Assembly (NCBI GenBank): GCA_038886995.1
Contig: JAWALG010000001.1
Location: forward strand, 14,635-46,634
Direction: 5' to 3'
Length of the DNA stretch: 32,000 nt
Source of the DNA: Candidatus Iainarchaeum sp.
GTDB taxonomy: Archaea > Iainarchaeota > Iainarchaeia > Iainarchaeales > DTGL01
A program made the translations under genes and the position numbers. Positions within the stretch are counted from its first letter, which is position 1. The number at the start of each line of letters is the position of its first letter. The notes under the pieces are model-generated. The model saw only the letters and a list, made by a program, of their open reading frames with translations, did no database searches and was not told the DNA's origin. Positions 1-27,297 of this stretch are shown here, piece by piece.

Positions 1-289
1 AGTTAATATCGGCTCTCGGTGGGCTAACAACAAGTATTGGCTCTATAAAACCGAACCTTCCTTTGTAAAGCTCTTGCCCATCTCCGGCAAGAAGAAACAA
101 GGTGGCATTGCCTGGAAACTCTTCAACACTAACATAACCATAAATTGCCTTTATTTCCACCAATTCAACATTCAAAAAATTTATGTCATAGTAAATCGAG
201 GCACTTATTACTTTTGTTTCATCTGAATACGCCCCAGCAAGAAAAAAAGCGAGTAAGATAAAAATAAGCAAGGTTGTTTTCGTTACCAT
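1..289 (-). CDS. secreted hypothetical protein, N-terminal part only (gene runs off the window start)
   Basis: Minus-strand ATG at 289..287. My hand translation is MVTKTTLLIFILLAFFLAGAYSDETKV..., i.e. a basic n-region, a hydrophobic core and an AGA|Y Sec-type signal. The frame stays open for 96 codons to position 1. It is absent from the ORF track because it has no stop in the window. Confidence 0.45.
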   Translation of the reverse strand, partial: MVTKTTLLIFILLAFFLAGAYSDETKVISASIYYDINFLNVELVEIKAIYGYVSVEEFPGNATLFLLAGDGQELYKGRFGFIEPILVVSPPRADIN

Positions 290-361: not shown

Positions 362-784
362 TCAGTTTGAGATTATTATGCTGTTTAGGTCATCTGAACA
401 CGAAAGTTCAACTATTGCCGGAAAAACCAATGGCTCATTCTTTATAATTATGTTGCAGTCCTCGCATACTTTGTTCTTTTTAAAGTATGCTTTTAGCGCA
501 TTTAGGTCAAATGTTTCGCCAGTAATCTTTTCGGTTTTTACATTATACACACCGCAATTTGCATCTCTGGCGCCAAAAGCACACGATTTCCAGCATTTTG
601 ACATTTCAATGAAAAACTGCTGGTATTGAATGTCATTCATAGGTCCTTTGCAACTATCAGGTATGAAAAGGCATGTAATTGATTTTTGAAGCCCGCTGAA
701 GTCAATGCCCACTATAAAAGCTAACACCACCATGCCAACCGCAAACGCAAAAATAAAGAATATCACCACTTCTATTGCCTGCAT
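362..784 (-). CDS. cysteine-rich pilin-like protein (140 aa), last gene of the locus A operon
   Basis: Internal ATG at 784 is preceded by AGGTG 6 nt upstream. The longer track ORF would overlap the upstream micro-ORF. N-terminus MQAIEVVIFFIFAFAVGMVVLAF is a short leader plus hydrophobic helix. There are 8 Cys, including a C-x3-C (KCWKSC) about 64 residues in. Confidence 0.55.
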   Translation of the reverse strand: MQAIEVVIFFIFAFAVGMVVLAFIVGIDFSGLQKSITCLFIPDSCKGPMNDIQYQQFFIEMSKCWKSCAFGARDANCGVYNVKTEKITGETFDLNALKAYFKKNKVCEDCNIIIKNEPLVFPAIVELSCSDDLNSIIISN

Positions 785-792
785 ACAAACAC

Positions 793-885
793 CTACTTCA
801 ATGCTGAGTAAACATACATTAAGATAAGGCCGACTACGGCAAGGCCAACTATAACTTCTATGATCTGCCAAGTTGTTTTGCTCAT
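793..885 (-). CDS. 30-aa single-helix membrane micro-protein (MSKTTWQIIEVIVGLAVVGLILMYVYSALK)
   Basis: Not in the ORF track because it is under 60 aa. Its ATG overlaps the TGA of the platform gene as ATGA (882-885). GAGGGGGTG lies about 8 nt upstream. The QIIEV motif matches the QAIEV N-terminus of the next gene. Confidence 0.4.
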   Translation of the reverse strand: MSKTTWQIIEVIVGLAVVGLILMYVYSALK

Positions 886-2774
886 CTTGTCAACACCCCC
901 TCAAATATGAATGTTGTAAACATCATAACTCCGATGAAGAAAAGCGCGCTGAATATTAAGAAGCCAGCAAGAAGGTTGCTGAAAATGGTTTTACCTATCT
1001 TGTAACGGTCAGTCCCATATTTAACATTCGCTAGGAATAAACTCAGGACTACTATTGTTAGTATAAGATATATGCCAACGATAACCAAAACTACAGTTGG
1101 CGGTATTATCTGGGAAATTTCTACAAGCTGCAAAGAAAGTTGTATCCCGAAAGCTTTACCAACCCCCTCAATAAGACCAATTATATACTCTAAAGACATC
1201 ACTATTGCCACAGCCATTATTATGGCTGTTGCTGCAAGTATTGGTGCTAATATTTTGCCTGAAAGTTCAATGGTTGCACTTGTATCACTTAAAAGCGTCT
1301 GCATGTAATTGTCAAGCCTAAAGACGGAAAGCGTGTGACTCCTTATCATCTTTGCCGCTTTTGCAGCATTCCTTATATCTGTTTCCGAAAAGTGTATCAA
1401 GCGCCTAAATATCTGTATAAGGCGCTTTGAGGCAACTATTTCGGGTAGCTTAGTATCAACAAAGTCCGCAAGTGTCTTTTTTGTGTTATAAAGAGCATCA
1501 GTTATTTCGCCAAATATCTTAACTACAGCATGTCTCTTAAAGCCATGTCTAATGTAATCTTCCTTAACATCTTCGATTATACTTTCCATTGGCCTGTTAA
1601 GCACAAGGTAACTGCTTACAACCTGAAGAAGATGTGGTATATCATCTTCAACCTCGCGCATCTCAAGCCATATTTTTTCATTAAGTTTAACATAGAATAA
1701 CAAGTAAACTTCTATTGCTAAGAACATGCCAAAAGGCACGCACCACGCTGCAATTAAGCTACCAAGTGAGTATTGCTTTACAATATCCTCTCTTGAACTC
1801 ATGTTTAGGCCTAAAAATTGAATAAGACCAAACCCACAAATGAGTACCGCAATACTTGCACATATTACATATACTGCTGGCGGCATCTTCTTGAATTTTG
1901 GTGAAAGAGATAAGTCGATTGTGTTAACCTGCACCCTATTTAGCGCAAAGTTCATGGCAAAAAGCAAGAGCAATGCTGGACAAAGAATATCGTAAATAAA
2001 TATCAGCATTGGCACATTAACCATGTTTGGGAGAAATATTGAAATCATTGGCAAAAGTATGAGTGACATCATTGGCAACATAACTCCAACAGAAACTAAA
2101 TTTTTTGCCTGGTTTGAAAGAGTTTCAGTTGTTCTTTTTCCCATTGTATAGTAGCCCTGCATTATTGTCTTTATGCCCTCTTTTAGCATATTGTCCCTTT
2201 CGCTGAGAGGCGCCAAGCTTGCTGTTTGCAGGATAGTAAGACCTTTTACGAAATCAGGATTTATTTCCATCCATATTGGGATATAATCCTCAAAGGCATC
2301 GCCGAGAGTGGCATATTGCTGGAGCTCCATTTTGGCAACAATATCCCTAAACTGTTTACCTAAAACACCCGTAAGGCCTTTTGAAGTTTCTGTAAAAGCA
2401 AATTCTATGCTTGTGTTCAAGCTTATGTAATTAGCCATTTCAAGCAAGGCTTGAAGCATCTCTTCTTTTTGCTGCATTATACCTTGGGTATAGTAGATGC
2501 TTGCACCGTAGAGATAAGAGGATATTGCTAGAAGGGCTGATGTAAAAATAAAGATATAGCCAAAAAGCTCAAATAGCCAAAGCTTTGCGGCAGCACCAAC
2601 AATAAAAAAGAATATCCCTGCAAAAGCAGGCAATATAAACCATATGAATATCCCTGAGAGGAACTCCGCTGAACTATATGGAAACTCAACCTGTTTGAAT
2701 TTTTTTTCGAGGGAAGGCGATTTTGGAAAAATTTTTATTGTCTTGCCAGTATTGTAAACAAAATCAAAATACAT
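882..2774 (-). CDS. type IV filament platform protein, fused FlaJ/ArlJ/TadBC-like polytopic membrane protein (630 aa)
   Basis: Two soluble helical-bundle segments are each followed by clusters of TM helices, the T2SS-F-like architecture. It lies immediately downstream of the secretion ATPase in the same operon. Confidence 0.65.
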   Translation of the reverse strand: MYFDFVYNTGKTIKIFPKSPSLEKKFKQVEFPYSSAEFLSGIFIWFILPAFAGIFFFIVGAAAKLWLFELFGYIFIFTSALLAISSYLYGASIYYTQGIMQQKEEMLQALLEMANYISLNTSIEFAFTETSKGLTGVLGKQFRDIVAKMELQQYATLGDAFEDYIPIWMEINPDFVKGLTILQTASLAPLSERDNMLKEGIKTIMQGYYTMGKRTTETLSNQAKNLVSVGVMLPMMSLILLPMISIFLPNMVNVPMLIFIYDILCPALLLLFAMNFALNRVQVNTIDLSLSPKFKKMPPAVYVICASIAVLICGFGLIQFLGLNMSSREDIVKQYSLGSLIAAWCVPFGMFLAIEVYLLFYVKLNEKIWLEMREVEDDIPHLLQVVSSYLVLNRPMESIIEDVKEDYIRHGFKRHAVVKIFGEITDALYNTKKTLADFVDTKLPEIVASKRLIQIFRRLIHFSETDIRNAAKAAKMIRSHTLSVFRLDNYMQTLLSDTSATIELSGKILAPILAATAIIMAVAIVMSLEYIIGLIEGVGKAFGIQLSLQLVEISQIIPPTVVLVIVGIYLILTIVVLSLFLANVKYGTDRYKIGKTIFSNLLAGFLIFSALFFIGVMMFTTFIFEGVLTR

Positions 2775-2797: not shown

Positions 2798-4462
2798 CTA
2801 TTTCCAAAGCAATTGCAAGCGTTTTTCATACTCTTCCTTGAACTTATTCTCTGCCTCTTCGCTTTGAAGCGGCTTTATTTTTTCAAAGGCCTCGGCAAAC
2901 CACTTGTTTGCTTTTAGCACGTAAGGCCCTTCAAGCTTCTCCTTGAAAACTGACATTGTCTCCACAAACCTTTGTTTAGCCCATGCTCTCAAACTGATAT
3001 CACGCCAAACCTTCTCGTAAGAGTCATATTCCATGCTAGTTTCCATTATGTTTTGAATGGTAACAGAGTTGCCTTTTAGCAATGCTTGCGTAGGAACCAA
3101 AGAGTCCTCTTTTTTATCATAAGTCATGAGTGTTCTGAAAACAGGTTCATCCTGCCAGTCCTTAAGGACTTCAACAACTTGGGTAACACGCCTCACATGG
3201 TAAAGGCCTGTTGGCGATTTAATCTGCTTTATTATTATAATAAGGTCTGTTACCTTGAATGACCCTTTTGGAACACCTAAGTCATTTACAACACGGTCAA
3301 AAACACCGTATGGGTTGTCAGCATGTATAGTGCCAGCAACAGTATTTGCCATTGCGCCTACGCGCATTGCTTCATAAAGGACTTTTGCTTCCTGAGAACG
3401 TACTTCACCCAGTATGAGGCATGAGTTGCCCAACCTTAAGCAGGTCCTAAGGCCTTTTTCGAAAGGTATTTCTAGGCCCTCTGGTGAAAGCGCTGAACGA
3501 ACTTTAAAGGAAAGTATATCGTAGCCATACTCTTTGTAGAAGTTTATTGGAAGCTCTTGGGTGTCTTCAATTGTTATAATCCTATATTTTGGAAGTATTT
3601 CGAGCATGCATGCACTGAGCAGAGATGTCTTTCCTGAGCCACGAGGCCCAGCCGTTAGGAAAGTCCTGCCGTGTGTGATCATGAATGACATGAAACCTGC
3701 GAAAAGAGGGCTTATGGTCCTATTAGCTATAAAAAGAGGCAAAGTCCATGGTTTTTCCCTGTGGCGCCTTATTGAATAACCAATGCCGTGTATTGAAAAT
3801 GGCTGCACAACAGCAGCAACCCTTGCCCTTTGATTTTCTACAACTAGTTCAGCGTCAAGCTGCGGCTGTGCCTTGTTAAGAGGCCTTCCAGAATTTATTT
3901 TAAGGTAAGTTGCTAAATAGTTTAAGAAGTCGATTGAAGGGTATAGGTTTGTTCTGCATTCATCAAAATCATCATGTACAACCCTAAAAGGGCTTTGGAA
4001 TTCGGGAGGATTTATATTTATCTCCTGAACTTTTGGATCACACATTAAGTAGTCGAGAATTCCGTGTTGCTTTATCCAACGCACAAGTACAGGATCCTTA
4101 AGCTCTCTGCTTTCATATTCTTTGTACAGGTAGAGCAATTGCTCCATGTTTGGCTCCAGATGTGGTATCGTTATCGTGTAAGTTGGCTCAAGGTTCTCTT
4201 CTTCCTGCACAATCTTTACATTTGCATCTTTTATCTTGTATGACTTGAGTACTTTGCCGCGAACTGGCTTTATAAGGCAATCAACAAAGAATGGGTAAAT
4301 TACATAAGAGTTATCCTTAAGGTATTGCTGCTTTGTAAAAATCTTATTTTTATAAACAATAAGGTCAAGGTCCTTTTGTGGCTTAATGCATTGCTCACAC
4401 ATTGGAAAGCTCTTATCGCCGAGACCTACGCAATTGCTGCAATCCCTAATTACATACTTCAT
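2798..4462 (-). CDS. type II/IV secretion-family ATPase (FlaI/ArlI/PilB/VirB11-like) with an N-terminal 4-Cys zinc ribbon
   Basis: Walker A is TAGPRGSGKTSLLSA, followed by IITIEDTQEL. The Walker B region is CLILGEVRSQEA and the His-box-like region is AGTIHAD. The N-terminus carries CSNC-x10-CEQC. Its start shares an ATGA overlap with the upstream gene. Confidence 0.85.
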   Translation of the reverse strand: MKYVIRDCSNCVGLGDKSFPMCEQCIKPQKDLDLIVYKNKIFTKQQYLKDNSYVIYPFFVDCLIKPVRGKVLKSYKIKDANVKIVQEEENLEPTYTITIPHLEPNMEQLLYLYKEYESRELKDPVLVRWIKQHGILDYLMCDPKVQEININPPEFQSPFRVVHDDFDECRTNLYPSIDFLNYLATYLKINSGRPLNKAQPQLDAELVVENQRARVAAVVQPFSIHGIGYSIRRHREKPWTLPLFIANRTISPLFAGFMSFMITHGRTFLTAGPRGSGKTSLLSACMLEILPKYRIITIEDTQELPINFYKEYGYDILSFKVRSALSPEGLEIPFEKGLRTCLRLGNSCLILGEVRSQEAKVLYEAMRVGAMANTVAGTIHADNPYGVFDRVVNDLGVPKGSFKVTDLIIIIKQIKSPTGLYHVRRVTQVVEVLKDWQDEPVFRTLMTYDKKEDSLVPTQALLKGNSVTIQNIMETSMEYDSYEKVWRDISLRAWAKQRFVETMSVFKEKLEGPYVLKANKWFAEAFEKIKPLQSEEAENKFKEEYEKRLQLLWK

Positions 4463-5040
4463 TGTGAAGCACCTTTTTCAGATACCTCTTTGCCATAATA
4501 ATCAATATATCTTTTTGCACGCTCCAATCGATCTTTAAGTGCGATATCGACTGTTGCGCCAACAACATCCTCAATCTTCTTTACCCTTGAGTTCATGTTT
4601 TCAAGGTCGCGCATCATTGATTCGAAAAGGTCTGGGGCGCGTATGGATGCAAGCCCACCAAATGTCTTTTCAACCTGGAGTATTTGTTCCCTTACTGCCG
4701 TATACCTTTGCAAAAGTTCTCCTGATAGGGCACGCTTTTTTAGTTCGCTTTCAGCGGCTTCTAGTTCCTCTATCGATGTAGATATTAGATTGGACTTTGA
4801 TGCAAGTATTTCTGTTCTTTTGCTAAGTTCATTTATCTTAGATTCAATCTCAAATGCAGAATACGATGTTCCTGCAATTATTGCATTTCTTAACTTTTCA
4901 AGCCTTGCTTTCTGCATCATTACTTGCGCACTTATATACCTGCATTTCTCTAGAATCATTGGGTCGCCATCAAATCTTACTTGCTCAAAGTCCGCTATGT
5001 TTGGATTGTAAAATTTTACCTTTGGTTTCTCGTCTGACAT
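4459..5040 (-). CDS. soluble coiled-coil protein (193 aa), function unknown
   Basis: No hydrophobic segment. Long charged heptad-like stretches (RLEKLRNAI..., SIEELEAAESELKKRA...). Translationally coupled to the ATPase start through an ATGA overlap. Confidence 0.6.
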   Translation of the reverse strand: MSDEKPKVKFYNPNIADFEQVRFDGDPMILEKCRYISAQVMMQKARLEKLRNAIIAGTSYSAFEIESKINELSKRTEILASKSNLISTSIEELEAAESELKKRALSGELLQRYTAVREQILQVEKTFGGLASIRAPDLFESMMRDLENMNSRVKKIEDVVGATVDIALKDRLERAKRYIDYYGKEVSEKGASQ

Positions 5041-5051
5041 CTTAACACACT

Positions 5052-5681
5052 TTAACGCTTAAAAAGCCCTTTAAGGCCTCCTGAAGGCTTTGGTTGCTGT
5101 GGTTGAGAAAATGGCTGCTGGGGGTATTGTGGCATATACTGCGGCGGATATTGTGCTATTTGTGCCTCAGAAATCTTGCTTATCTTGAAAAGCTCTTCTA
5201 TCCTTTTTAACCTGTGGTTGAGTTCGTCAATTATTTCTACAAGCTCAACAAGTATTTTTGTTGATTTAGATCCCATAAGCTTCTCCTGAAGCTCTTCAAT
5301 ATTTTTTATCCTCGACTCTAAGAGCTGAACCTGCTTCTCAGAAATGCCCTCTTGCAGAAGATTTTTCAAAACCTCTTGATCCTTCCTAATTTCAGCAATT
5401 TTCTCAACCGCTAACTCAAGCTTTGATTCAACGCTATCAATGGTTTCCTCAATGGAAGTTAGCTTCTCAACATTCTCGCTATATTCGGTTAGCGGCGATC
5501 CTAAAACAATTGTCTTGTCGAGGTTGTCAAGCTCTACGCGCAAATTTTCAAGCTGGCCGACAAGAAAGTTCAGGTTTGCGTTTACCTCTGAAAGATTTTT
5601 CTGCTTTGACTGCGATATAATGGCAAGAGAACTTTCAACGCCGCCAATCTTATTCTTCACGGATTCAATCTTTGGGTCCAT
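5052..5681 (-). CDS. soluble coiled-coil protein with a Q/P-rich C-terminal tail (209 aa), first gene of the locus A operon
   Basis: I chose the start at the internal MDPKIESVKNK because the TATA box TTTATATATA (5715-5724, minus strand) lies inside the longer track ORF. The body is E/K/L-rich coiled coil. The tail is QYPPQYMPQYPQQPFSQPQQPKPSGG. Confidence 0.6.
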   Translation of the reverse strand: MDPKIESVKNKIGGVESSLAIISQSKQKNLSEVNANLNFLVGQLENLRVELDNLDKTIVLGSPLTEYSENVEKLTSIEETIDSVESKLELAVEKIAEIRKDQEVLKNLLQEGISEKQVQLLESRIKNIEELQEKLMGSKSTKILVELVEIIDELNHRLKRIEELFKISKISEAQIAQYPPQYMPQYPQQPFSQPQQPKPSGGLKGLFKR

Positions 5682-5816
5682 AAAAATCCCTATTCTTATT
5701 CTTAGTGTTTGCCTATATATAAATGTTTTCATAGCGGCTAAAGGCCAAATACCTGGTTCAGTAAAAGATAAATTTAAATATAAAAATGGTAATATGTATA
5801 AGCAAGAGGCGAAAAA
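5682..5816. promoter_or_regulatory. divergent promoter region of locus A
   Basis: TTTATATATA (5715-5724, minus strand) lies about 35-40 nt upstream of the ATG at 5681. TTTAAATATAAAAA (5773-5786, plus strand) lies about 35 nt upstream of the ATG at 5817, with GAGG 7 nt before that ATG. Confidence 0.4.
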
Positions 5817-6215
5817 ATGGAGCTTCCCATCTCTGTAATGATAACAATTTTTGTAGCCCTTGCCGTAGGTGCTATGCTCTTAACATTAAGCCAAGGTTGG
5901 CTCTCAGGCCTAGAGCTTCCTTGGGTGCCCCAAAATAAAGGTGAAACTAAAATTATCCAGCAGATAAGCATAACAAACTCACAAATAGGCAAGCTTCTAA
6001 GGTCATGTTATGAAGAAATGAATCAAAAGCCAAAAATGGAATATTATACTTGTTATGCGATAACTGTTGAAAACCCAGTAACTGTGGATCCTGCTGAAGT
6101 TGCAAAGGAATTGCCTGGAATTGACACTAATAGCTACCACATAGACAGCGGCACTACAAGAAGCATAACAATATTTTGGAACTACCCAAGCAGTAAGGTG
6201 GAGGTGAGGGTATGA
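5817..6215 (+). CDS. pilin-like / N-terminally anchored small secreted protein (132 aa, 2 Cys)
   Basis: N-terminus MELPISVMITIFVALAVGAMLL is a hydrophobic helix with no canonical KG/A cleavage motif. It is the first gene of the plus-strand operon and overlaps the next gene as ATGA. Confidence 0.5.
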   Translation: MELPISVMITIFVALAVGAMLLTLSQGWLSGLELPWVPQNKGETKIIQQISITNSQIGKLLRSCYEEMNQKPKMEYYTCYAITVENPVTVDPAEVAKELPGIDTNSYHIDSGTTRSITIFWNYPSSKVEVRV

Positions 6216-6772
6216 ATCAGAAAGGAATGGAAATGGCAATACAGGTCTTCATAATTCTTTTTGTGCTATTAGCTGTAGCGTTGCTTGTTTTGCAGATGGT
6301 TTCACAGCAAGTGATAAAAGTTGGCGGTGAACTCGAAAAGAAGACAATTGATGAGTGGAAACAAGAATGCCAAAACCTATGCATAAAGGCAAAAGATATG
6401 GCAGGAAAGGTCAATTTCTGCAAACATGTTTTTACCCAAGGTGTGGATCTGACAAAAAATCAGCTCAAAAACGATTATGATGAGGAGCTACTTGCAGGTA
6501 TTGGTATCTGCGAAAACCGCATACCATGCCCTATTTTGGTTGATTGTGATGCTGACGGCGCATTGCTGAAAATGGAGAGTTGTAAAAGCATAATGTGCAG
6601 TTACTGGAAGACACAGGGCTTTTCTACTGAAGAGGCAAGTGCAAACCTGAAAAAATTTATACAGCCGGGAGACTGCTATTCTGATCCAATGAACCAGCCA
6701 AACCATTGGTTCACGAGGTTATTTGACAAAAACAAAGATGGCAAAGCAAGCGATGATGAAGTGGTCTGCTAA
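6212..6772 (+). CDS. cysteine-rich pilin-like protein with two EF-hand-type loops (186 aa, 10 Cys)
   Basis: MNQKG|MEMAIQVFIILFVLLAVALLVL is a class III-like leader. It has the C-x3-C ECQNLC. The loops DCDADGALLKME (aa 111-122) and DKNKDGKASDDE (aa 172-183) fit D-x-[DN]-x-D-G-x-x-x-x-x-E. The protein ends in ...EVVC. Confidence 0.6.
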   Translation: MNQKGMEMAIQVFIILFVLLAVALLVLQMVSQQVIKVGGELEKKTIDEWKQECQNLCIKAKDMAGKVNFCKHVFTQGVDLTKNQLKNDYDEELLAGIGICENRIPCPILVDCDADGALLKMESCKSIMCSYWKTQGFSTEEASANLKKFIQPGDCYSDPMNQPNHWFTRLFDKNKDGKASDDEVVC

Positions 6773-6792
6773 AAAATCAGCGGTAGGGAAAA

Positions 6793-7203
6793 ATGGAGAA
6801 TGCTGTTTGGGTAGTTTTTGGAATAATAACGGTTTTCTTAGCCATGGGGATATTGCTTACGATGGTTGAAAACAATAGGGAACAAACCAAGATAAAGACC
6901 AACGAAAATGCAGTAAAGGCCTTTGCGCAATGGTGCAATTTTGTATGTGACTCAGAGGTTGAAACGCGCCTAGGCAAAGAAATTGAAATTTCATCAGGCG
7001 CAGTCATGAGTGGCCATGGCAAAGGGGTTTGCATTGACTACAAAAACAATAAAAATTGTGAATACTGCAAATGCGATGTGAACGCTATAGAACTAAACCT
7101 AAATGAACCAGATATAATAAAAGCATACGATACCCACGCTTTCAGGTGCATATTTGAAAAAACAGACATAGAGGTTGTGGCAATTGAATGCAGAGGTACC
7201 TAA
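6793..7203 (+). CDS. cysteine-rich pilin-like protein (136 aa, 8 Cys)
   Basis: N-terminus MENAVWVVFGIITVFLAMGILL is a hydrophobic helix. It has C-x3-C (WCNFVC) at aa 48-52 and a CEYCKC cluster. Confidence 0.55.
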   Translation: MENAVWVVFGIITVFLAMGILLTMVENNREQTKIKTNENAVKAFAQWCNFVCDSEVETRLGKEIEISSGAVMSGHGKGVCIDYKNNKNCEYCKCDVNAIELNLNEPDIIKAYDTHAFRCIFEKTDIEVVAIECRGT

Positions 7204-7207
7204 GCAA

Positions 7208-7588
7208 ATGCTTCAGAAAGGCAGCATTTCAATAAATGTAATGATTTACATAGGCGTTGCCCTTGCTTGTGGCATTGCTTTGTTTTGGTTTTTGCAGAAT
7301 TTCTTCAGCGCACAGATGCTTTTTGAGAAGATGGACAATGACTTAATGCATATGGCCTCAAGGATCAATGAAAACTGCGATTCTAACTATTTTTTATTTT
7401 ACCACAACCCAGTAATAGAAGAAGGTAAAATTGACTTCAACAAGGACTCTGCATGCATGGAAAATAGAAATGTAAGGCGATGTGTAAAGCTTCTCTGCGG
7501 CCCAGAGTTTTTGGTAAGCTTCAAGCTTGAGGACTTAAACATAATAATTTTTGAGAAAGCTCAGACCTTAACAATCTGGACGCAATAG
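7208..7588 (+). CDS. pilin-like protein (126 aa)
   Basis: ATG at 7208 sits just after the TAA of the previous gene at 7201-7203. MLQKG|SISINVMIYIGVALACGIALFWF is a class III-like leader. There are 4 extracytoplasmic Cys. Confidence 0.55.
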   Translation: MLQKGSISINVMIYIGVALACGIALFWFLQNFFSAQMLFEKMDNDLMHMASRINENCDSNYFLFYHNPVIEEGKIDFNKDSACMENRNVRRCVKLLCGPEFLVSFKLEDLNIIIFEKAQTLTIWTQ

Positions 7589-10955: not shown

Positions 10956-11492
10956 GTGGTGCCTAAATTTAAGCCAACTGGCTTCTTTTCATCAGCTTTG
11001 GTTGTTATTTTTACTGCTGCATTAATTTCTATAATCGCATCTTATGTTAGGGAGCTTGCATTATTGAGAGAAGCCCACATAACAGCCATTGAAATGGAAC
11101 AAGCCAGCTTTGCAAGGTTTCAGGTGGAGGAGAATATTTCAAAAGTAATAAAGGAAACATTAGAATCAGAGTTATCAAAAAACAACACTGACTCGGTTAT
11201 TCTTAACAGCATTGTTAGCAAAAAGGTTTCAGATGTCTATGAGAGATTCAAAAAGCATTTTGGATGCGAGTTATACATAACTGATGGCACTAGCAGATAC
11301 CCTTTCACAGGCCTCAACGAACTATCCAGAACCATTGTATTTGATTCAGATGGCCTTACCATAGCAGAATATACTTACACTGGCGGCGCCATGAAAAACA
11401 AAAGCGTTGTTTGCAAAATACAGAAAGGCAGTGCATATGCTTTTGCATCACTAGTTCCAGGGTACACTGTGAGGGCAACAAAAGTTGGTTAA
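10956..11492 (+). CDS. pilin-like protein B1 (178 aa)
   Basis: GTG start with GGGG about 8 nt upstream. The leader is MVPKFKPTG|FFSSALVVIFTAALISIIASYV, a G|F cleavage-type motif followed by a hydrophobic helix. Confidence 0.6.
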   Translation: MVPKFKPTGFFSSALVVIFTAALISIIASYVRELALLREAHITAIEMEQASFARFQVEENISKVIKETLESELSKNNTDSVILNSIVSKKVSDVYERFKKHFGCELYITDGTSRYPFTGLNELSRTIVFDSDGLTIAEYTYTGGAMKNKSVVCKIQKGSAYAFASLVPGYTVRATKVG

Positions 11493-11493
11493 G

Positions 11494-11865
11494 ATGCATA
11501 AGAACATAGCACTAAAAAATCAAAAGGGTGTCGCAGCACTTGAAATGTTGCTATGCATAATGCTGGTAATAGTACTGCTCTCAATTGCATTGGAAAGCAT
11601 TCAGAGTACTGGAAAAACTTCTTATGAAAAGCACAAAAGATTAGAGGCATATGCTAAAGCAAAAAGTTGCAGCACACTAGTGGATTCGCACTACACAAAC
11701 CCACAGGTAAGTGCTTCCTTGGGGATTGATTGTGCAATTTTTGAAGGGGCAGTTGGAAGCGATTACAATGGAAGCTTTGTGTATTCAGAGATATTCTCTG
11801 GTGCAACAATAGTCACGAAGAAGCAAGGTACCGAGGTAAAGGTTCATGGTACGCACTACAAGTAA
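11494..11865 (+). CDS. class III signal peptide pilin B2 (123 aa)
   Basis: ATG at 11494 sits right after the previous TAA. The leader is MHKNIALKNQKG|VAALEMLLCIMLVIVLL, with KG at -2/-1 and E at +5. Confidence 0.65.
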   Translation: MHKNIALKNQKGVAALEMLLCIMLVIVLLSIALESIQSTGKTSYEKHKRLEAYAKAKSCSTLVDSHYTNPQVSASLGIDCAIFEGAVGSDYNGSFVYSEIFSGATIVTKKQGTEVKVHGTHYK

Positions 11866-12307
11866 AAAAGGCATGTTCTTTGCCTTAGACCTCTGTACAG
11901 CGTTCATAATAATACTCCTTGTTTGTTTTCTATCATTTTTCGTTTTTGTAAGAGTATCACAGTTCAGGTTAATACGCAGCAACTTTTTCGAAAATGAGCA
12001 TAACGCACTTTTTGTGGATTCGCTTCTCAAAAGAAGCGTCGATGAGAATGGCTTTGCAGATGTAAGCTTTGATGAGCGGCGCGTTCTTGAGAATCGTGTA
12101 GCTGACTTTGAAGTGGCATTTGAGAAAAACAGGGAAAACCTCCTCAGGAACAAGGTTATTGCATTAAAGCTAAGCAGCAATGAGATTGTTTTGGATAAGG
12201 AAAAAATTTCTGAATGCAGAGACATGGCTATATTCAGGCGAGCATTTTTGCTCAAAGGAAAATTTAGCATTTTGGAGGTGGCCTTTTGCAATGACACAAA
12301 GCATTAA
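11846..12307 (+). CDS. pilin-like protein B3 (153 aa)
   Basis: The leader is MVRTTSKKG|MFFALDLCTAFIIILLVCFL, with GAGGT upstream. It overlaps the previous gene by 20 nt. Confidence 0.55.
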   Translation: MVRTTSKKGMFFALDLCTAFIIILLVCFLSFFVFVRVSQFRLIRSNFFENEHNALFVDSLLKRSVDENGFADVSFDERRVLENRVADFEVAFEKNRENLLRNKVIALKLSSNEIVLDKEKISECRDMAIFRRAFLLKGKFSILEVAFCNDTKH

Positions 12308-12659
12308 CGGCTTTGTATTCACAATGGAATCTTCTATTTCAGCAATGCTTTTCGCAGTAGTTGCGTTTTCTGCATTGAGCATATTTTATTTTAGCGAAGG
12401 TCCTAGAACAGAGGAGCTAATAATATTGCAAAAAGAGCACGACCTGTTGAAGATATGGCTTTTGCAAAGGCCTACTAAGGAAGAAATGGTAAATGATGCG
12501 AAACAGATATTCGGAGAAAGATTTTCACTAATCACAGATGGGATAAAAGTTTTTGATGGAAACAAAAGCAGAGGAAATTCAAATGCGATATCAAGCAAGC
12601 TTTTGGTTATAGACAAAAACCTAAAAGAAACGGAAATAATTCTTATAGCATATGATTGA
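12291..12659 (+). CDS. pilin-like protein B4 (122 aa)
   Basis: Internal ATG at 12291 with GGAGGTGG upstream. The leader is MTQSING|FVFTMESSISAMLFAVVAFSAL. It overlaps the previous gene by 17 nt. Confidence 0.6.
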   Translation: MTQSINGFVFTMESSISAMLFAVVAFSALSIFYFSEGPRTEELIILQKEHDLLKIWLLQRPTKEEMVNDAKQIFGERFSLITDGIKVFDGNKSRGNSNAISSKLLVIDKNLKETEIILIAYD

Positions 12660-12661
12660 GT

Positions 12662-13069
12662 TTAGCAGTTTTGCACCTTTAAAAAAATAGCATCTTTTTG
12701 GCGCTTAAGCAAAAAGCAAGAGGTTTTATTCAAAGAGAGGGTGCTATTTGAAGAGATTACTTTAAATGCAGTATCAACATTAATGTCAGAACCATTGACT
12801 GAAAGTGTTATAAGCCCAGGCCTTATTGAAAAGTTCCAATCTTGCAAGGGATTGCATCTAAGTTCAAGTTCAGAGCCCTCGGAAAGTTGTTCCATTAGCT
12901 TTATTGAGCTTTTAAGCTCTGAGGCAAAAAGCTTTGCATTTGCCAAATCAATTGCTTTAATGGATTTGCTATAGGCCCTACTGGCTGAAGGTAGAATAAG
13001 GCACATGGCAGCAATTGCCACGGCAAGCACTATCAAAAACTCCAAGGAAATTTGCGCTTTTTGGTTCAT
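12662..13069 (-). CDS. class III signal peptide pilin B5 (135 aa)
   Basis: The leader MNQKA|QISLEFLIVLAVAIAAM is the canonical archaeal Q-x-S-x-E-[FY]-L-I pattern. The protein ends in ...KVQNC. Confidence 0.75.
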   Translation of the reverse strand: MNQKAQISLEFLIVLAVAIAAMCLILPSASRAYSKSIKAIDLANAKLFASELKSSIKLMEQLSEGSELELRCNPLQDWNFSIRPGLITLSVNGSDINVDTAFKVISSNSTLSLNKTSCFLLKRQKDAIFLKVQNC

Positions 13070-16346: not shown

Positions 16347-16802
16347 TTAGCCGCATGTTCCGACTATTGGCTTTGCACCGACTAGCTTCTTATCATAGGT
16401 ACTGCCTTCAATTCTATACGTTATTATAAGAGGGTACTGATAGCCTGATCCTGCATTACACCCTAAACCTGAAAAAGTCAGTGATGAAAGAGTTTTTGAT
16501 TCACCTGCATTTAAAACCAGATCATTCGCTGATGCTACCTTGCCATTTAGGTTGATATCTATAACAGTTATTTTTTCAGTACCTACATTCTTAAGTGTAA
16601 AGTTGCCCGTATTACCACCGATCTGCCAGTCCGTTACTGCTATTGGTGAAGTTCCTTGCCAATAGGCCTTGCTCTGTTGTTCTGTTATGGCTCCGCCAAG
16701 GCCTGGGAACCAGCCCATCACTCCTGCAACAACAAGTGCAATTATTATTATTACAGCCAAAATAATCAAATACTCGGTTGTTCCTTGTCCTCTATTTTTC
16801 AT
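16347..16802 (-). CDS. class III signal peptide pilin, stand-alone candidate major pilin (151 aa)
   Basis: The leader MKNRGQG|TTEYLIILAVIIIIALVVAGV is the canonical archaeal prepilin N-terminus. A GGAGGT SD lies 7 nt upstream of the ATG at 16802. A beta-rich globular part carries a Cys pair (GLGCNAGS ... VGTCG at the C-terminus). Confidence 0.8.
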   Translation of the reverse strand: MKNRGQGTTEYLIILAVIIIIALVVAGVMGWFPGLGGAITEQQSKAYWQGTSPIAVTDWQIGGNTGNFTLKNVGTEKITVIDINLNGKVASANDLVLNAGESKTLSSLTFSGLGCNAGSGYQYPLIITYRIEGSTYDKKLVGAKPIVGTCG

Positions 16803-16955
16803 CACATTACCTCCTTACAGTATTGTTTAAGTAATATTTATTGATACACCGGAGTTTAAAATACTTACTTTTTGCCAAATTGGTTTAAATCAGGCCTTTA
16901 AACGCTTTGTTTTTATTGATAATCAGCAAAAATATAGGTAGCAACCGGTGTCCTT

Positions 16956-18448: not shown

Positions 18449-19003
18449 GTGGTTTTGGTGGCAAAAAAGATCGACTTTGCTTCAATAGCCGAGGACCAAA
18501 TAACCCTTTTCATAGTGCCAGCCAAGGACTATGTTGAGGTTGACAATGAGCTTCTTCATTATTTCATAAATGTTAAGAAGATGGGCTGCATATATGTTGC
18601 TGCAAACAAACCGGCACAGCTTGTAAATAAAATACTAGAGAATGCAAAGGTAAACACTGAAAAGATATGGTACATTGATTGTGTCTCAGGAAGGGTTTCT
18701 TCGCCACACAGGATTGAAAAAGTTATTTTTCTTGAAACACCGAGGGACCTAACAAACATGAGCATTGCAATAACAAATTTTGTAAAGAACATGCCTGAAA
18801 AAAGCAAGATGCTTTTCATAGACAGCTTGACAACGCTAACAATCCATAACGACATAAACACTATTGCTAAGTTTACCCATTTCATAATAAACCAAGCAAG
18901 GAACTGGGGCGTATCAATGGCCCTGATATCAATTGAAGAAGAGGCAGAAGCAGAGCTTATAAACAAGATATCCATAATTGTGGATAAAGTTGTAAAGCTT
19001 TAA
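18449..19003 (+). CDS. RecA/KaiC-fold domain protein lacking a P-loop (DUF835-like, predicted inactive)
   Basis: MLFIDSLTTL resembles the KaiC-family Walker B strand (hhhhDS). The expected Walker A position reads LFIVPAKDYVEV, with no GxxGxGK[ST]. GTG start. It is the third gene of the membrane-protein operon. Confidence 0.5.
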   Translation: MVLVAKKIDFASIAEDQITLFIVPAKDYVEVDNELLHYFINVKKMGCIYVAANKPAQLVNKILENAKVNTEKIWYIDCVSGRVSSPHRIEKVIFLETPRDLTNMSIAITNFVKNMPEKSKMLFIDSLTTLTIHNDINTIAKFTHFIINQARNWGVSMALISIEEEAEAELINKISIIVDKVVKL

Positions 19004-20052
19004 TAAGATGCTAAAAGAATTCCTCTAAGGAAAATCCTCGCGAAGAAGAAAATCACTGCAGAAACGAGGAATATTGCTGGAAAATATTTAAGGCCGAATT
19101 TTGCTTTGCCTCTGGAGATTACTCCCATAAACGCGCTCGCAAATAGAGAATTTCCAAAAAGGAGCAAATATGCTGCAATGCTCATGAAAGCCGGGTCTAT
19201 GCTTATGCCCGAAGACAAGAAACCGAGGTTGAACGATCCGCTTGTGTCCCTTGCAATATCTGCTTGCATATTCGAAAGAAGCTCTAGGAAAATAACTGAA
19301 ACAGAAAGAAGCACCGGTGTCATTATTACAACAATGAAAAGAAGAAACATCTCATACATCTTGGTGCCTGATATTAGCGCTTTTTTAAGTTCTTGTGTTT
19401 GCCTCATGTCTTCTGCTGATGTCTCAAGAAGCTCAGCAATTTTGCCTCCAGCACGCATTGACTGTATCATGAAAGGCACCATTTGCTTAAGGTTTTCTGA
19501 GTCAATACTTTCAGAAAGGGCTTTAAGCGACTCTGTAAATGATTCTGTGCCAAGGGATTTTGATGTAGCAATCTTAATCTCCTCAGCCAAAGGACCAAAT
19601 TCTTCCCTTGCAGCGCTCCTGAAAGCAAAGAAAGGAACCATGCCTGCTCTTATGTTGTTTGAAACTAAAAGCATGAAATCGGGCAAAATCTTGTCAACGA
19701 GGTTTGCCCTTGAGTCAATCTTATAATAGAGCATAAGCTGGTATATAACTGCTATGACACAAAATGAAATTATGCCAACGAGGAGAGCAGTTAGGTAAAT
19801 AAGCCCGGTTGGAAACAATGATGAAAAAAGACCACTAAAAACAGTTAGGGGCAAAAGGAAAAACAAAATTGATAAAAGTATTGCAAGGAGAAGCTTTCGC
19901 CCAATATATAGATCAAAATCGCCTTTTATTCCGGCATAAGTTAGCATCTGGTACAAAACCCTTTGCCTTATTTTTGTGGGAACTGCTCTGCTTAGCCCTA
20001 AGCAAACCCTTCTATAGAAGCGTTCAATTGACTTGGAAAGACTCCCGTTCAA
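19000..20052 (-). CDS. T4F platform protein, TadC/FlaJ C-half-like (350 aa)
   Basis: A cytoplasmic helical T2SS-F-like segment (LPDFMLLVSNNIRAGMVPFFAFRSAA...SLKALSESIDSENLKQM...MRAGGKIAELLE) is flanked by TM helices. It overlaps the upstream gene by 4 nt. Confidence 0.75.
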   Translation of the reverse strand: MNGSLSKSIERFYRRVCLGLSRAVPTKIRQRVLYQMLTYAGIKGDFDLYIGRKLLLAILLSILFFLLPLTVFSGLFSSLFPTGLIYLTALLVGIISFCVIAVIYQLMLYYKIDSRANLVDKILPDFMLLVSNNIRAGMVPFFAFRSAAREEFGPLAEEIKIATSKSLGTESFTESLKALSESIDSENLKQMVPFMIQSMRAGGKIAELLETSAEDMRQTQELKKALISGTKMYEMFLLFIVVIMTPVLLSVSVIFLELLSNMQADIARDTSGSFNLGFLSSGISIDPAFMSIAAYLLLFGNSLFASAFMGVISRGKAKFGLKYFPAIFLVSAVIFFFARIFLRGILLASY

Positions 20053-20939
20053 GTCAAAAACACCTTCGGAACTCGGCTTTTAACAAAGCCGATTATTGAT
20101 AGCTGTATTGCAAATGAAAGCACTACTATAAATAAAATTGTTGCAGGACCTATTGATGCACCTGCAAGTGAAGAAAGTATGACGATAAATGTAATGCCTA
20201 AGCTTGGTATGGCTGCTGCAAAAAGCATATACATCAAAACCCACACATTGAGTTCTGCGGAATAATCCCTTATAGCCCTTTCTTGCTCTTTCACAAGCAT
20301 TGCTACAATTGACTGCAAAGCACCTTTAACAGAGGCACCGCTTCTTATGGCGCTCAGCAACTGCCAGCAGGTCTTTTTTAGATGCTCAGAGCTTGTCTTT
20401 ATTGCCATCTTTTCAAGGGCTTTTGCTTCTGATTCGCCAGCATTTATCTCCTTTACAACATACTCAAATTCTTCCGAAACACCAGCATAGCCTGACTTAG
20501 CAACATAAACTAAGGTATTGTAGAGGCTTATGCCAGAGCAAACCTGGACATACATTGATTTTACCGCAAAGAGGAGGTTATTATCTATGGTCCTTGCTCG
20601 GTTATTCGCTATTATGCGCGGATAAAAAACATGCAACAGAAAGAACACAACGCCAAATATTAGACCAAAGAAAAGTGCACTAACAAGTACTGAAGCATCA
20701 AATTGCAGGGATCTTAAAAATAAAAGCGTAGCAAACAAGGCAAAAAAAAGCGCAAAGTATGCAAGCGCTGAAAAAAAAGCAGCAGTAAGGTATTTTTCTG
20801 GGTCAATTTTTATGCCAGCTAGGTGCAAATCATATTTAAGCGGATAGAATAAGTCACTCAGCTTTTCACCAATCCAAAGAAAACGCCTATTGATCCTGTT
20901 TGCGCGTTCAATTGAGAAAAGCATGAACTTTACGCGCAT
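20049..20939 (-). CDS. T4F platform protein, TadB/FlaJ N-half-like (296 aa)
   Basis: The T2SS-F-like segment is IDNNLLFAVKSMYVQVCSGISLYNTLVYVAKSGYAGVSEEFEYVVKEINAGESEAKALEKMA...LLSAIRSGASVKGAL, flanked by TM helices. Confidence 0.75.
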   Translation of the reverse strand: MRVKFMLFSIERANRINRRFLWIGEKLSDLFYPLKYDLHLAGIKIDPEKYLTAAFFSALAYFALFFALFATLLFLRSLQFDASVLVSALFFGLIFGVVFFLLHVFYPRIIANNRARTIDNNLLFAVKSMYVQVCSGISLYNTLVYVAKSGYAGVSEEFEYVVKEINAGESEAKALEKMAIKTSSEHLKKTCWQLLSAIRSGASVKGALQSIVAMLVKEQERAIRDYSAELNVWVLMYMLFAAAIPSLGITFIVILSSLAGASIGPATILFIVVLSFAIQLSIIGFVKSRVPKVFLT

Positions 20940-20940
20940 C

Positions 20941-22848
20941 TTATGCCTCCAAAAACATTGCTGGCTTTTTATTCTGCTTTGCTGCCTCTAAAACCTCATC
21001 TGGATTGGCGTAAAATGCCTTCATTATGCTGCCAACCTGGTTTATATCGCTTACGTTGTTGTTAAGCATCCACTCTATGATGTGGGCCCTACCATCAAGG
21101 TCTTCGGCAATTTCCTGTTCAGTGAGGCCTGTGTGCAGATTAATGTTCCCAACAAGCTTAGTTGGCTTGTTGAGCATATCCCACTTATCAGTCCTTGGAG
21201 ACCATTTGAATACAGTGTTTATTCGCAACTGTGCTCCTGTTGTTCCTGTCTCAATCTCGCAGATTTCATAGCTACGCCTTCTGTTCGTTTTCCTATCCCT
21301 GTACTGCACTAGTATGAGATCAAGACCTTCAACCTCTAGCGGAGGCAATGATATTGGTGGCTCCAGCAGGCGTCTTAAAACCTGTTGGCCTGAGTTTGCG
21401 TGCAGCGTACTGTATACGCTGTGGCCTGTGTGCAACGCTTCAAACAATACCTCTGCTTCTTTCTTCTTTCTTATCTCACCAAGGATTATTCTGTCAGGCC
21501 TCATCCTAAGTGAAGCATGCATAAGGTCAAGCATTTTAACCTCGCCAAGGCCTTCAGGGTTTGGGTTCCTTGTTGTCATTGGCACCCAGTTCCACTGAAG
21601 GTGGCTTGGAAGCATTATTTCGCGCACATCTTCTATTGAAATGATTCTGTGGTAGGGTGGCATGAAAACGCACAAGGCATTTAGCATTGCGGTTTTTCCT
21701 GAAGCCGTGCCGCCTGCAACAAGCATGCTCATTTCGTATTGCATTGCAAGCCAGAGCAAAGAGGCCATCTCTATGCTAAGCGTATGCCTTACGCCAATTA
21801 AATCAACAATTGTCCAAGGCCTTCTTGCAAAGCGCCTTATTGTTAAGGTGTTTCCAAAGGAAGATATTGGGAATAGAGAGGCATGGACCCTGTCGCCAGT
21901 AATTATGTGGGCATCGAGCAGCGGATTGAGCGTTGTTATCTCTCTGCCAACTTTCCTTGCAATTTGTGAAGCATAGTTTGCTATTGCATCCTCAGAAAGA
22001 GGCATTATATTTGTTCTCATCCAGCCGTATTCCTTGTGGTAAACAGTAATGTGCGTTTTAGAGGAATTTATTGCTACTTCTTCAAGGTCATTATCACCCA
22101 TTATTAGTTCAATTATGCCAAGGCCATACATTTCATGTAGAAGCAGCCCTGCAAGGATATCCTGAAGTTTAGGGTCTGAGCCGAAATACTCCTGAAGGAC
22201 CTTTTTGGCCTCATCAAAGTATCTTCTCTTGAGCTCTTGGCTTTTCTTAGTATCGGTTATTTCTGAAACCTCAACAGGCACGTGCTCAACAATTTTGTTC
22301 TTTATTTCATCAAGGAATATTTTAGTATAAGGCCTAAAGGTTGGCGGAATCAGGTTGTAGTAAAGCATTCGGTCCTCTGTGGAGCGAACAATTTCAACAC
22401 GCACTGGCACATTATCAACTGAATGTTTTTTTTGCTCAACTTTCTTGCCATCAAAAACAAAGAGTTTTGGTTCTGTAATAAGGGTAAGAAGCACGACCCT
22501 CGGGCGCTTGATGACTGTTGTGGGGTAAACAAGCTTTACAACGCTTGACATCTCAAGGATCCTGCCTATGTTTTCTACGGCATCTATGCTGAGACCAAGC
22601 TTGCTAGCGAGCTCATTCAAGGACGCGCTTTTCTTCACCTTGAGTATATCTACTAGAGAGTCAACTGGCGTAGTTATTGGGTCTCTTAAGTCGTCATAGT
22701 CATTTTGCTTTTTCTCTTTTTCTTCAGTTTGGTGCTTTGGGCTATAATAATGCTCTTCTTCCGCATTTGGTTCTTCCTTAGGCCTAAGTGGAAGAACAAT
22801 ACTTTGGCCTTCTTCTGAAGCTTTTACTATTTTGCTCTTTTTCTTCAC
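20941..22848 (-). CDS. type IV filament assembly ATPase (FlaI/ArlI/TadA-like) with an N-terminal charged region plus a wHTH-like domain
   Basis: Walker A is VAGGTASGKTAMLNAL, followed by IISIEDVREI. Walker B is RPDRIILGEIRKKKEAE and the His box is GHSVYSTLHAN. GTG start with AAGGTG 7 nt upstream. The N-terminal 120 aa are extra. Confidence 0.9.
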   Translation of the reverse strand: MKKKSKIVKASEEGQSIVLPLRPKEEPNAEEEHYYSPKHQTEEKEKKQNDYDDLRDPITTPVDSLVDILKVKKSASLNELASKLGLSIDAVENIGRILEMSSVVKLVYPTTVIKRPRVVLLTLITEPKLFVFDGKKVEQKKHSVDNVPVRVEIVRSTEDRMLYYNLIPPTFRPYTKIFLDEIKNKIVEHVPVEVSEITDTKKSQELKRRYFDEAKKVLQEYFGSDPKLQDILAGLLLHEMYGLGIIELIMGDNDLEEVAINSSKTHITVYHKEYGWMRTNIMPLSEDAIANYASQIARKVGREITTLNPLLDAHIITGDRVHASLFPISSFGNTLTIRRFARRPWTIVDLIGVRHTLSIEMASLLWLAMQYEMSMLVAGGTASGKTAMLNALCVFMPPYHRIISIEDVREIMLPSHLQWNWVPMTTRNPNPEGLGEVKMLDLMHASLRMRPDRIILGEIRKKKEAEVLFEALHTGHSVYSTLHANSGQQVLRRLLEPPISLPPLEVEGLDLILVQYRDRKTNRRRSYEICEIETGTTGAQLRINTVFKWSPRTDKWDMLNKPTKLVGNINLHTGLTEQEIAEDLDGRAHIIEWMLNNNVSDINQVGSIMKAFYANPDEVLEAAKQNKKPAMFLEA

Positions 22849-22892
22849 TTAAAACACCTTTAGTCAATATATCTCATACCATATTAATAAAC

Positions 22893-23738: not shown

Positions 23739-23744
23739 AAAAAA

Positions 23745-25034: not shown

Positions 25035-25055
25035 AAGGTCACCTTAAATATTTTA

Positions 25056-27233: not shown

Positions 27234-27297
27234 ACTTAACACTATTATTATAACAATAGGAAGTTATTAATAATAACGATTATTGCAAATAGCCAAC

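Follow-up and report, generated by a model that had tools for sequence, protein, structure and literature searches.

Cysteine-rich pilin-like proteins with and without class III leaders in a candidate type IV filament module of DPANN archaea

The pilin-like genes and their module

The DNA analysed here, called the window, is a stretch of 32,000 nucleotides (nt) from Candidatus Iainarchaeum sp. (positions 14,635 to 46,634 of contig JAWALG010000001.1, assembly GCA_038886995.1). It carries five genes for small, cysteine-rich, pilin-like proteins, which are the genes under study and are named A to E. F denotes an extra gene that occurs in relatives, and L003, L005 and similar labels denote the loci of relatives. 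A preliminary description of this DNA had reported five open reading frames of 126–186 amino acids (aa) with an N-terminal hydrophobic helix, and had listed their cysteine counts, a C-x3-C motif and their N-termini; all of these points were borne out. The pilin-like character also stood, as the hydrophobic helices are accompanied by neighbouring genes for a T2SSE-family ATPase and a diverged platform protein (Table 1).

Genes B, C, D and E form a tight plus-strand operon, in which the stop of B and the start of C share 4 nt and no other gap exceeds 20 nt. A is the last gene of a minus-strand operon that diverges from B–E. In L005 and L006, all genes lie on one strand in the order coiled-coil 1, coiled-coil 2, ATPase, platform, 30-aa peptide, A, B, C, D, E, F and large protein, and a Woesearchaeota metagenome-assembled genome (MAG) has a locus, L023, with the same order and the same protein types. 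In all three, A immediately precedes B on the same strand. Since the distant Diapherotrites loci are collinear on one strand, the layout of the window is best read as a derived inversion that separated A from B–E.

The closest genomes to the window are Candidatus Iainarchaeum/Diapherotrites MAGs, and its ATPase is 97% identical to one encoded on JAOAJX010000003.1. The module was found in about 20 Diapherotrites loci and in the one Woesearchaeota MAG, and 10–19 orthologs per family A–F were gathered from 20 loci. When a profile of C was searched against 1.84 billion representatives, 329 clusters (50% identity) were detected at E <= 1e-3 and 196 at E <= 1e-10. The named members of this family come from Woesearchaeota, Aenigmarchaeota and Diapherotrites, and all are called hypothetical except one, a dockerin type I repeat-containing protein. 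Database searches with D returned 3 proteins by single sequence and 13 by profile. The preliminary view that the set is specific to this one locus had to be given up. A DPANN-wide module whose proteins A–E escape the curated Pfam and NCBIfam models is new here.

F is absent from the clade of the window. In relatives it is a sixth class III pilin with 6 conserved cysteines, and in L008 it is fused to a 596-aa protein. After F, the relatives encode large proteins of 595–863 aa that have leaderless, pilin-like hydrophobic N-terminal helices (MSAVSN..., MSVSEN..., MSVTEN...). Further highly Cys-rich proteins lie downstream, with 40 Cys in 636 aa and, in L023, 63 Cys in 923 aa.

The ATPase gene matched Pfam T2SSE (4.3e-16) and, under the cut-off of that model, NCBIfam FlaI (1e-32). 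Its nearest solved relatives are Archaeoglobus fulgidus GspE2 and FlaI (PDB 2oap and 4ii7, the latter FlaI; about 1e-22). Residues 8–25 of the ATPase read DCSNC...FPMCEQC, a CxxC-x12-CxxC arrangement that is kept in the Diapherotrites orthologs, and the Woesearchaeota ortholog has a related Cys-rich N-terminus. This segment is probably a zinc ribbon; archaeal type IV filament (TFF) ATPases with N-terminal Cys-rich domains were known earlier (PMC4858521).

The presumed platform gene always follows the ATPase gene. Among five platform orthologs, four matched Pfam Spore_III_AB (best E 2.2e-5) and two weakly matched T2SSF (E 0.03); the 630-aa protein of the window itself had no T2SSF match and no match among PDB sequences. 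SpoIIIAB is GspF-like. The two coiled-coil proteins gave weak, sub-threshold Pfam matches only, including Snf7 (E 0.03–0.9) and EzrA. Counterparts of the 30-aa micro-protein are called as 30-aa genes in L005 and L006 and were also found in L003 and L023. A Glu lies inside the hydrophobic stretch of the copies from the window, L003, L005 and L006, and the L023 copy lacks it. This micro-protein could be a minimal Flp-like subunit or a partner of the platform. In L003, the 254-aa counterpart of the gene fragment downstream of A is followed by a 713-aa protein with a PKD match.

The window also holds a second, canonical TFF locus with two T2SSF platform genes, a T2SSE ATPase and several pilin-like genes. 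At least one of the latter has a weak Class_IIIsignal match, one product is a 728-aa pilin-headed protein with immunoglobulin (Ig) domains, and a KaiC-like ATPase gene adjoins. Also present are one Class_IIIsignal pilin that stands alone and a third group of small pilin-like genes.

Table 1. Coordinates of the module genes, of segments within them and of other features; positions refer to the window unless a relative's locus is given, and a slash marks the leader cleavage site.
Feature	Position	Strand	Description
A	362-784	-	140 aa, 8 Cys; leaderless pilin-like; starts MQAIEVV (Glu at position 5)
B	5817-6215	+	132 aa, 2 Cys (C64, C79); leaderless pilin-like; starts MELPISV
C	6212-6772	+	186 aa, 10 Cys; class III signal-peptide pilin; MNQKG/MEMAIQ
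D	6793-7203	+	136 aa, 8 Cys; leaderless pilin-like; starts MENAVWV
E	7208-7588	+	126 aa, 5 Cys; class III signal-peptide pilin-like; MLQKG/SISINV
EF-hand-like loop of C	6725-6760	+	residues 172-183
Fragment downstream of A	1-289	-	N-terminal fragment of Sec-signal protein, MVTKTTLLIFILLAFFLAGAYS...; corresponds to 254-aa gene of L003
30-aa micro-protein	793-885	-	single-helix membrane protein MSKTTWQIIEVIVGLAVVGLILMYVYSALK; between platform gene and A; ATG overlaps platform stop
Presumed platform	882-2774	-	630-aa polytopic membrane protein; diverged T2SSF/FlaJ-like
Secretion-superfamily ATPase	2798-4462	-	FlaI/GspE2/TadA-like; Pfam, NCBIfam and PDB matches
CxxC...CxxC segment of ATPase	4388-4441	-	residues 8-25
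Predicted coiled-coil protein	4459-5040	-	193 aa; upstream of ATPase; position kept in L003, L005, L006, L009, L023
Predicted coiled-coil protein	5052-5732	-	226 aa; Q/P-rich tail QYPPQYMPQYPQQPFSQPQQPKP; first minus-strand operon gene, divergent from B; position kept
Other TFF/pilin genes	10956-13069		none Cys-rich
Other TFF/pilin genes	16347-16805	-	none Cys-rich
Other TFF/pilin genes	19000-27242	-	none Cys-rich
Other TFF/pilin genes	27298-28248	-	none Cys-rich
F and large proteins, relative	L005:11777-16889
F and large proteins, relative	L006:11819-13606
F and large proteins, relative	L009:9379-14533
F and large proteins, relative	L023:9784-13960
Thioredoxin/DsbA-like protein, relative	L005:18642-19901	-	419 aa; membrane-anchored

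Cysteines, predicted folds and relatedness of the proteins

Past residue 35, cysteines account for 6.6–7.9% of residues in A, C and D, compared with 1.1% in eight of the window's cytoplasmic proteins and 0–3% in its ten other pilin-like proteins. One of the five cysteines of E (C21) is located within the hydrophobic helix, leaving 4 outside. The C-x3-C motif reads CWKSC at residues 64–68 of A, CQNLC at 53–57 of C and CNFVC at 48–52 of D; furthermore, A contains a C-x2-C at 107–110 and D a C-x2-C-x-C at 89–94. In shuffled sequences of the same Cys density, a C-x3-C appeared anywhere in 41–46% of cases per protein and jointly with a probability of 0.08. The joint probability that all three start at residues 45–68 was about 1e-3, for a residue range that was chosen post hoc. 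The motif is meaningful through its conservation and not through its occurrence in one genome, and a chance origin was rejected because it is conserved across homologs.

In C, all 10 cysteines and the segment from E7 to Q33 of the hydrophobic alpha-1N were invariant in 22 homologs of 35–85% identity, and the C-x3-C was kept in at least 90% of the DPANN-wide sample of the family. In D, C52, C80, C89 and C94 were invariant in both alignments. C119 and C133 of D were invariant in the 16 locus orthologs and missing from one truncated sequence only in the second alignment, and C48 and C92 were present in 13 of 16 orthologs. Six of the eight cysteines of A are conserved (four invariant and two in 9/10 orthologs). 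The four extracytoplasmic cysteines of E were invariant among 15 orthologs, and so were the two of B in its family. Conservation of the Cys positions among orthologs, which the preliminary description had anticipated, is thus seen in the family alignments.

The number of cysteines after the transmembrane (TM) helix was even in 82 of 85 orthologs of A–F. All 99 single-domain representatives of the C family had 8, 10, 12 or 14 cysteines after the helix, never an odd number. Losses and gains also came in pairs. C48 and C92 of D were missing jointly in at least 6 sequences and never singly. The C protein of L022 lost one cysteine of its C-x3-C (C53 or C57, on which the alignments disagree) along with C112, and one 12-Cys clade of C gained two cysteines adjoining exactly the C-x3-C and C112 positions. 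In A, C68 and C129 were lost jointly in L021, and C38 and C45 were gained jointly in the clade of the window. The even numbers together with the paired losses and gains argue for disulfides rather than metal. A pilin head family with strictly paired cysteines and no solved structural relative is new here.

The conserved cysteines, especially those of C-x3-C and C-x2-C, might instead bind zinc or an Fe-S cluster, and the domains could then even be cytoplasmic. C-x3-C is indeed combined with C-x2-C in both A and D, the ATPase of the same locus has its conserved zinc-ribbon-like N-terminus, and the leaderless proteins lack a charge bias that would fix their topology. However, the Cys counts are almost always even and range from 2 to 14, the cysteines are lost pairwise and do not form a fixed set of 3–4 Cys/His ligands, and B has only two of them. 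Each lost pair consists of one helix Cys and one distant Cys while the remaining cysteines persist. The class III leaders of C and E dictate a location outside the cell, and the D model places C80/C89 and C119/C133 opposite each other in beta-hairpins, judging from the strand register. We therefore regard metal binding as highly improbable, and from the earlier alternative of disulfide or metal stabilisation only the disulfide half was retained.

An IVYWREL estimate from eight proteins, which is crude and weak, suggested a moderately thermophilic organism (about 59 °C); moderate thermophily would fit disulfide stabilisation. As a separate observation, L005 encodes, 8 kb from the module, a membrane-anchored 419-aa protein with thioredoxin/DsbA-like domains (Thioredoxin_4, 3e-10). 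It is a candidate extracytoplasmic disulfide oxidoreductase.

The AlphaFold2 model of C (22 sequences; predicted local distance difference test score, pLDDT, 82.6; predicted template modelling score, pTM, 0.70) consists of a 57-residue helix (residues 3–59) followed by short helices and a small hairpin. The model of D (13 database sequences; pLDDT 86.7, pTM 0.73) consists of a helix (2–52), five strands (59–67, 70–83, 86–102, 114–123 and 128–135) and one short helix. As modelled, D has the lollipop architecture of pilins. The preliminary expectation of a long alpha-1 with a beta-sheet head was therefore supported by the models for alpha-1 in both proteins and for the sheet in D, and did not hold for the mostly helical head of C. 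The best Foldseek match for D was the oligonucleotide-binding (OB) fold of Ten1 (E 0.09, template modelling score 0.24), and querying the PDB sequences with profiles of the two proteins yielded nothing of significance.

The first 30 residues of mature C showed 79% mean pairwise identity, compared with 34% in the rest of the protein and 34–46% in the other families. Just before its C-terminal Cys, C contains an EF-hand-like loop, D-K-N-K-D-G-K-A-S-D-D-E (D172 to E183), which agrees with the 12-residue DxDxDG-type consensus that has Glu in position 12. This loop matched Pfam EF-hand_1 (PF00036) under the cut-off (E 0.11), and the PDB profile matches to GCAP3 and frequenin were not significant. 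It is kept only in part of the Diapherotrites clade and is absent from distant family members, many of which have a different D-x-N-x-D-G loop in the middle of the protein.

Pairwise BLASTP among A–E and the ten other pilin-like proteins of the window gave nothing significant past the TM helix. Comparison of the family alignments by hhalign linked B to C with 97% probability, C to D with 88%, D to E with 86.5%, A to B with 53% and A to D with 40%, and left F unlinked. Without the TM helix the probabilities were at most 42%, and most of the signal came from the N-terminal helix and the Cys at the helix end. In these alignments, CQNLC of C fell onto CNFVC of D, all four E cysteines onto C52, C80, C89 and C94 of D, and the sole Cys pair of B onto C64 and C77 of A. 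By these alignments, B, C, D and E are likely of common descent and A possibly shares it, and the heads of A–E have diverged past secure detection. The paralogous family proposed earlier is thus partly supported, with links among B–E and a weak attachment of A.

Encoded N-termini and the proposed filament

A hydrophobic alpha-1N some 20 residues long is common to the five window proteins and every ortholog, and the families differ in what precedes it. The leader of C reads M-x-x-[KR]-G followed by M[ESD]MAI[QE] in 19/19 orthologs, and textbook archaeal class III leaders, for example KKAQMSLEMIIGLLILLVV and KKG/TEKPIEIF, occur in distant members of the C family. The leader of E is mostly MNA[RK][GA] followed by S, D or N among 15 orthologs, with a few deviating. 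With one exception, the F sequences contain a [KRS]-G pair, after which [IV]-Y-S usually comes next. The start of E in the window is ambiguous, because ATG 7208 gives MLQKG, TTG 7184 gives MNAEVPKQMLQKG and TTG 7175 is also possible. TTG starts, generally overlapping the end of D, are used by 14 of 15 E orthologs, so the E protein of the window's clade may have a longer leader than MLQKG.

A begins with M[QE]x[ILV]E at the same Met in 10/10 orthologs, none of which has a [KR]-[GA] leader or a conserved upstream peptide. D begins with ME[NQ]xVW (MDQ in one) at the same codon position in 16/16 orthologs (12 ATG, 3 GTG and 1 TTG); a [KR]-[GA] leader was found in 0/16, and most orthologs have no possible upstream start. 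B begins with ME[MLV][PA]I in 16 orthologs, at the same Met in at least 14, and the other two may keep a leader: in L009 and L021 an in-frame MNQKG or MMNEKG, a C-type leader, stands immediately upstream. Window B has an in-frame stop 6 codons upstream. Mis-called upstream starts were ruled out as the cause of the leaderless state, since most A, B and D orthologs have an in-frame stop a few codons upstream and no alternative start, and the possible upstream peptides are not conserved.

The N-terminus of B (MEMPIQIFITLFV, e.g. in L014) is nearly identical to that of mature C (MEMAIQIFIVLFV), and the Woesearchaeota proteins show the same leaderless N-termini (MEVVE, MEMPI and MEQPVW). Being leaderless by encoding, A, B and D directly have the end that C gains through cleavage, and this state is common to two DPANN phyla. 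To judge from these alignments, the N-termini of A, B and D are systematically leaderless rather than sloppy signal peptides. The preliminary description had noted that they do not fit the [KR]-[GA] rule and had missed this point. That half of the subunits systematically lack a leader is new here, and the exact phrase "leaderless pilin" was not found in the literature searched.

We consider it fairly probable that A–E are the disulfide-locked subunit set of a DPANN-wide, so far unannotated TFF system. Each protein would be anchored by its N-terminal hydrophobic alpha-1 helix, and each small extracytoplasmic head would be locked by 1–5 disulfide bonds. The C-x3-C on the last turns of alpha-1 would staple the helix to the head. 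We infer the individual pairings from Cys co-variation and from the models. In D, the staples from helix to beta-3 are most likely C48–C92 and C52–C94 by strand register and co-variation, and the strand register suggests C80–C89 and C119–C133 as cross-strand hairpin staples. Predicted partners elsewhere are C53 or C57 with C112 in C, and C68 with C129 in A.

C, with its canonical class III leader and almost invariant alpha-1N, is probably the repeating or core subunit; the 79% identity of its alpha-1N against 34% elsewhere makes it the best candidate. This gives C the look of a core or major subunit, at odds with the earlier label of a minor-pilin set. E, and F in relatives, would be processed low-copy pilins. 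A, B and D would be pilin-like subunits that lost the leader, with Met-Glu... (Met-Gln-x-Ile-Glu in A) corresponding to the post-cleavage N-terminus of C. Because the encoded N-terminus equals the cleaved end of C, they would enter the assembly unprocessed, for example as priming, tip or base subunits. In relatives, the set is enlarged by F and by large pilin-headed proteins.

This idea can be carried further. It is conceivable, although we consider it rather doubtful, that A, B, D and the large MSxxxN-headed proteins, about half of all the pilin-like subunits, are genetically "pre-processed" and join the fibre without a prepilin peptidase, in a system with a disulfide-bonded, calcium-loop head of a fold outside the PDB. 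In such a peptidase-independent assembly, shared by at least two DPANN phyla, the initiator Met of these subunits would take the +1 position of a cleaved pilin.

A different role is possible for the leaderless proteins. If the pilins are limited to C, E and F, the other three proteins, A, B and D, would be monotopic, membrane-anchored accessory proteins at the base of the machine, similar to the FlaF/FlaG stator. Their orthologs all, or nearly all, lack a [KR]-[GA] leader, A follows immediately on the genes for the platform and the 30-aa TM peptide, and FlaF provides a precedent, being monotopic, with an incomplete archaellin domain and no class III signal peptide, and staying out of the filament (PMC4425475). 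However, the N-terminus of B copies the processed end of C nearly residue for residue, and two B lineages still have a C-type leader, an indication that B functions in the form with the processed-like end. The hhalign links of B to C and of C to D, the absence of FlaF/FlaG among the PDB matches of the D model, and a locus without archaellin or FlaH also speak against such anchors. We thus consider the accessory role unlikely and favour a role of A, B and D as subunits, because the processed C end is mimicked by B, which is still able to bear a leader.

The assembly itself could also be short. A pseudopilus like that of the type II secretion system (T2SS), or a bindosome-like assembly, might export the large Cys-rich proteins of the downstream genes, or display them, rather than build a long pilus. 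The pilin-like genes of the module are numerous and varied but alike in size, and none stands out as an abundant simple pilin. In relatives, the module is followed by large Cys-rich pilin-headed proteins, and F is fused to a large protein in L008. Bindosome-type use of archaeal TFFs is known (bioRxiv 10.64898/2026.04.22.720090). Nevertheless, the extreme conservation of the C alpha-1N is the expectation for a homopolymerising subunit, and no substrate-binding protein or ATP-binding cassette transporter was linked to the relatives' loci examined. A pseudopilus or display role seems improbable to us, more so than the accessory role, and sequence alone does not separate it from the favoured filament.

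Several observations weigh against the filament interpretation. A–E had no Pfam or NCBIfam pilin match at E <= 1, including Class_IIIsignal, whereas three other pilins of the window do match PF04021 (Class_IIIsignal), under its gathering cut-off. The head of C is mostly helical in the AlphaFold2 model and not a beta-sheet, and Foldseek searches of the PDB with the C and D models returned no significant match and no pilin. The leaderless proteins lack a positive charge at the N-terminus that would fix an N-in topology. Neither an A24-type prepilin peptidase nor a thiol-disulfide oxidoreductase is encoded in the window. Finally, 3 of the 85 A–F orthologs have an odd Cys count, and each paired Cys loss may be a single phylogenetic event, so that the pairing is suggestive and no statistical proof.

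The DPANN archaea, which are ultrasmall and for the most part rely on hosts, have surface appendages that are the foremost candidates for attachment to a host. A module that ranges from Diapherotrites to Woesearchaeota is a concrete and widespread candidate for a host-attachment apparatus. If the leaderless subunits enter the fibre, a class III leader and its peptidase would not be obligatory for every subunit of a type IV filament, and this would bear on how assembly is primed; if A, B and D are stator-like anchors, they would be an ordinary accessory set. The strict rule of even Cys numbers implies that these reduced genomes specify an active system for forming disulfides outside the cytoplasm. 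Such systems are poorly characterised in archaea.

Comparison with known systems

The module was not described in the 2016 survey of archaeal TFFs (PMC4858521) or in the parts considered here of the 2026 survey (bioRxiv 10.64898/2026.04.22.720090). It shares several features with archaeal class III pilins (Epd/Aap/Ups; PF04021): a short basic [KR]-[GA] leader in C and in most E and F proteins, a hydrophobic alpha-1N about 20 residues long, an extended alpha-1 with a small head in the models of C and D, and genes grouped with a FlaI/TadA-like ATPase and a polytopic platform. Unlike these pilins, the module proteins match no Pfam or NCBIfam pilin model and have probably disulfide-rich heads with 2–14 Cys. 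In addition, the C head is mostly helical without a PDB counterpart, and A, B and D are leaderless.

The preliminary description had called such a high Cys density unusual for archaeal pilins, and a precedent corrects this view. In the type IV pili of Thermoproteales subclade 4E, almost all extracellular components have several conserved cysteines, from which stabilising disulfides are expected (PMC4858521), so a high Cys content is not unprecedented. For a Pyrobaculum pilin, "cysteines forming bonds" are mentioned in the 2026 survey (bioRxiv 10.64898/2026.04.22.720090). In contrast to subclade 4E, the module belongs to DPANN and not to Thermoproteota, and it is built differently, with one 630-aa platform, a pair of coiled-coil proteins and a 30-aa peptide.

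A, B and D resemble FlaF/FlaG (ArlF/ArlG) in having an N-terminal helix, a pilin- or archaellin-like extracellular domain and no class III signal, and in being encoded near FlaI/FlaJ-type genes. They differ in being Cys-rich and in that they begin with exactly the processed-type N-terminus of pilin C, their neighbour. Five strands make up the sheet of the D model, against eight in the Ig-like beta-sandwich, and its PDB search gave no FlaF/FlaG match. Unlike an archaellum operon, the module locus contains neither archaellin nor FlaH.

The bacterial priming sets (FimU-PilVWXE with PilY1; GspHIJK) differ from the module in that their members all keep a cleavable leader. The module belongs to a single-membrane archaeon, and no sequence or fold similarity was detected between them. 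Nevertheless, both have 4–6 different low-copy pilin-like genes per operon, along with a large protein that either has a pilin-like N-terminus of its own or associates with one. This likeness suggests that the module encodes a priming or tip complex.

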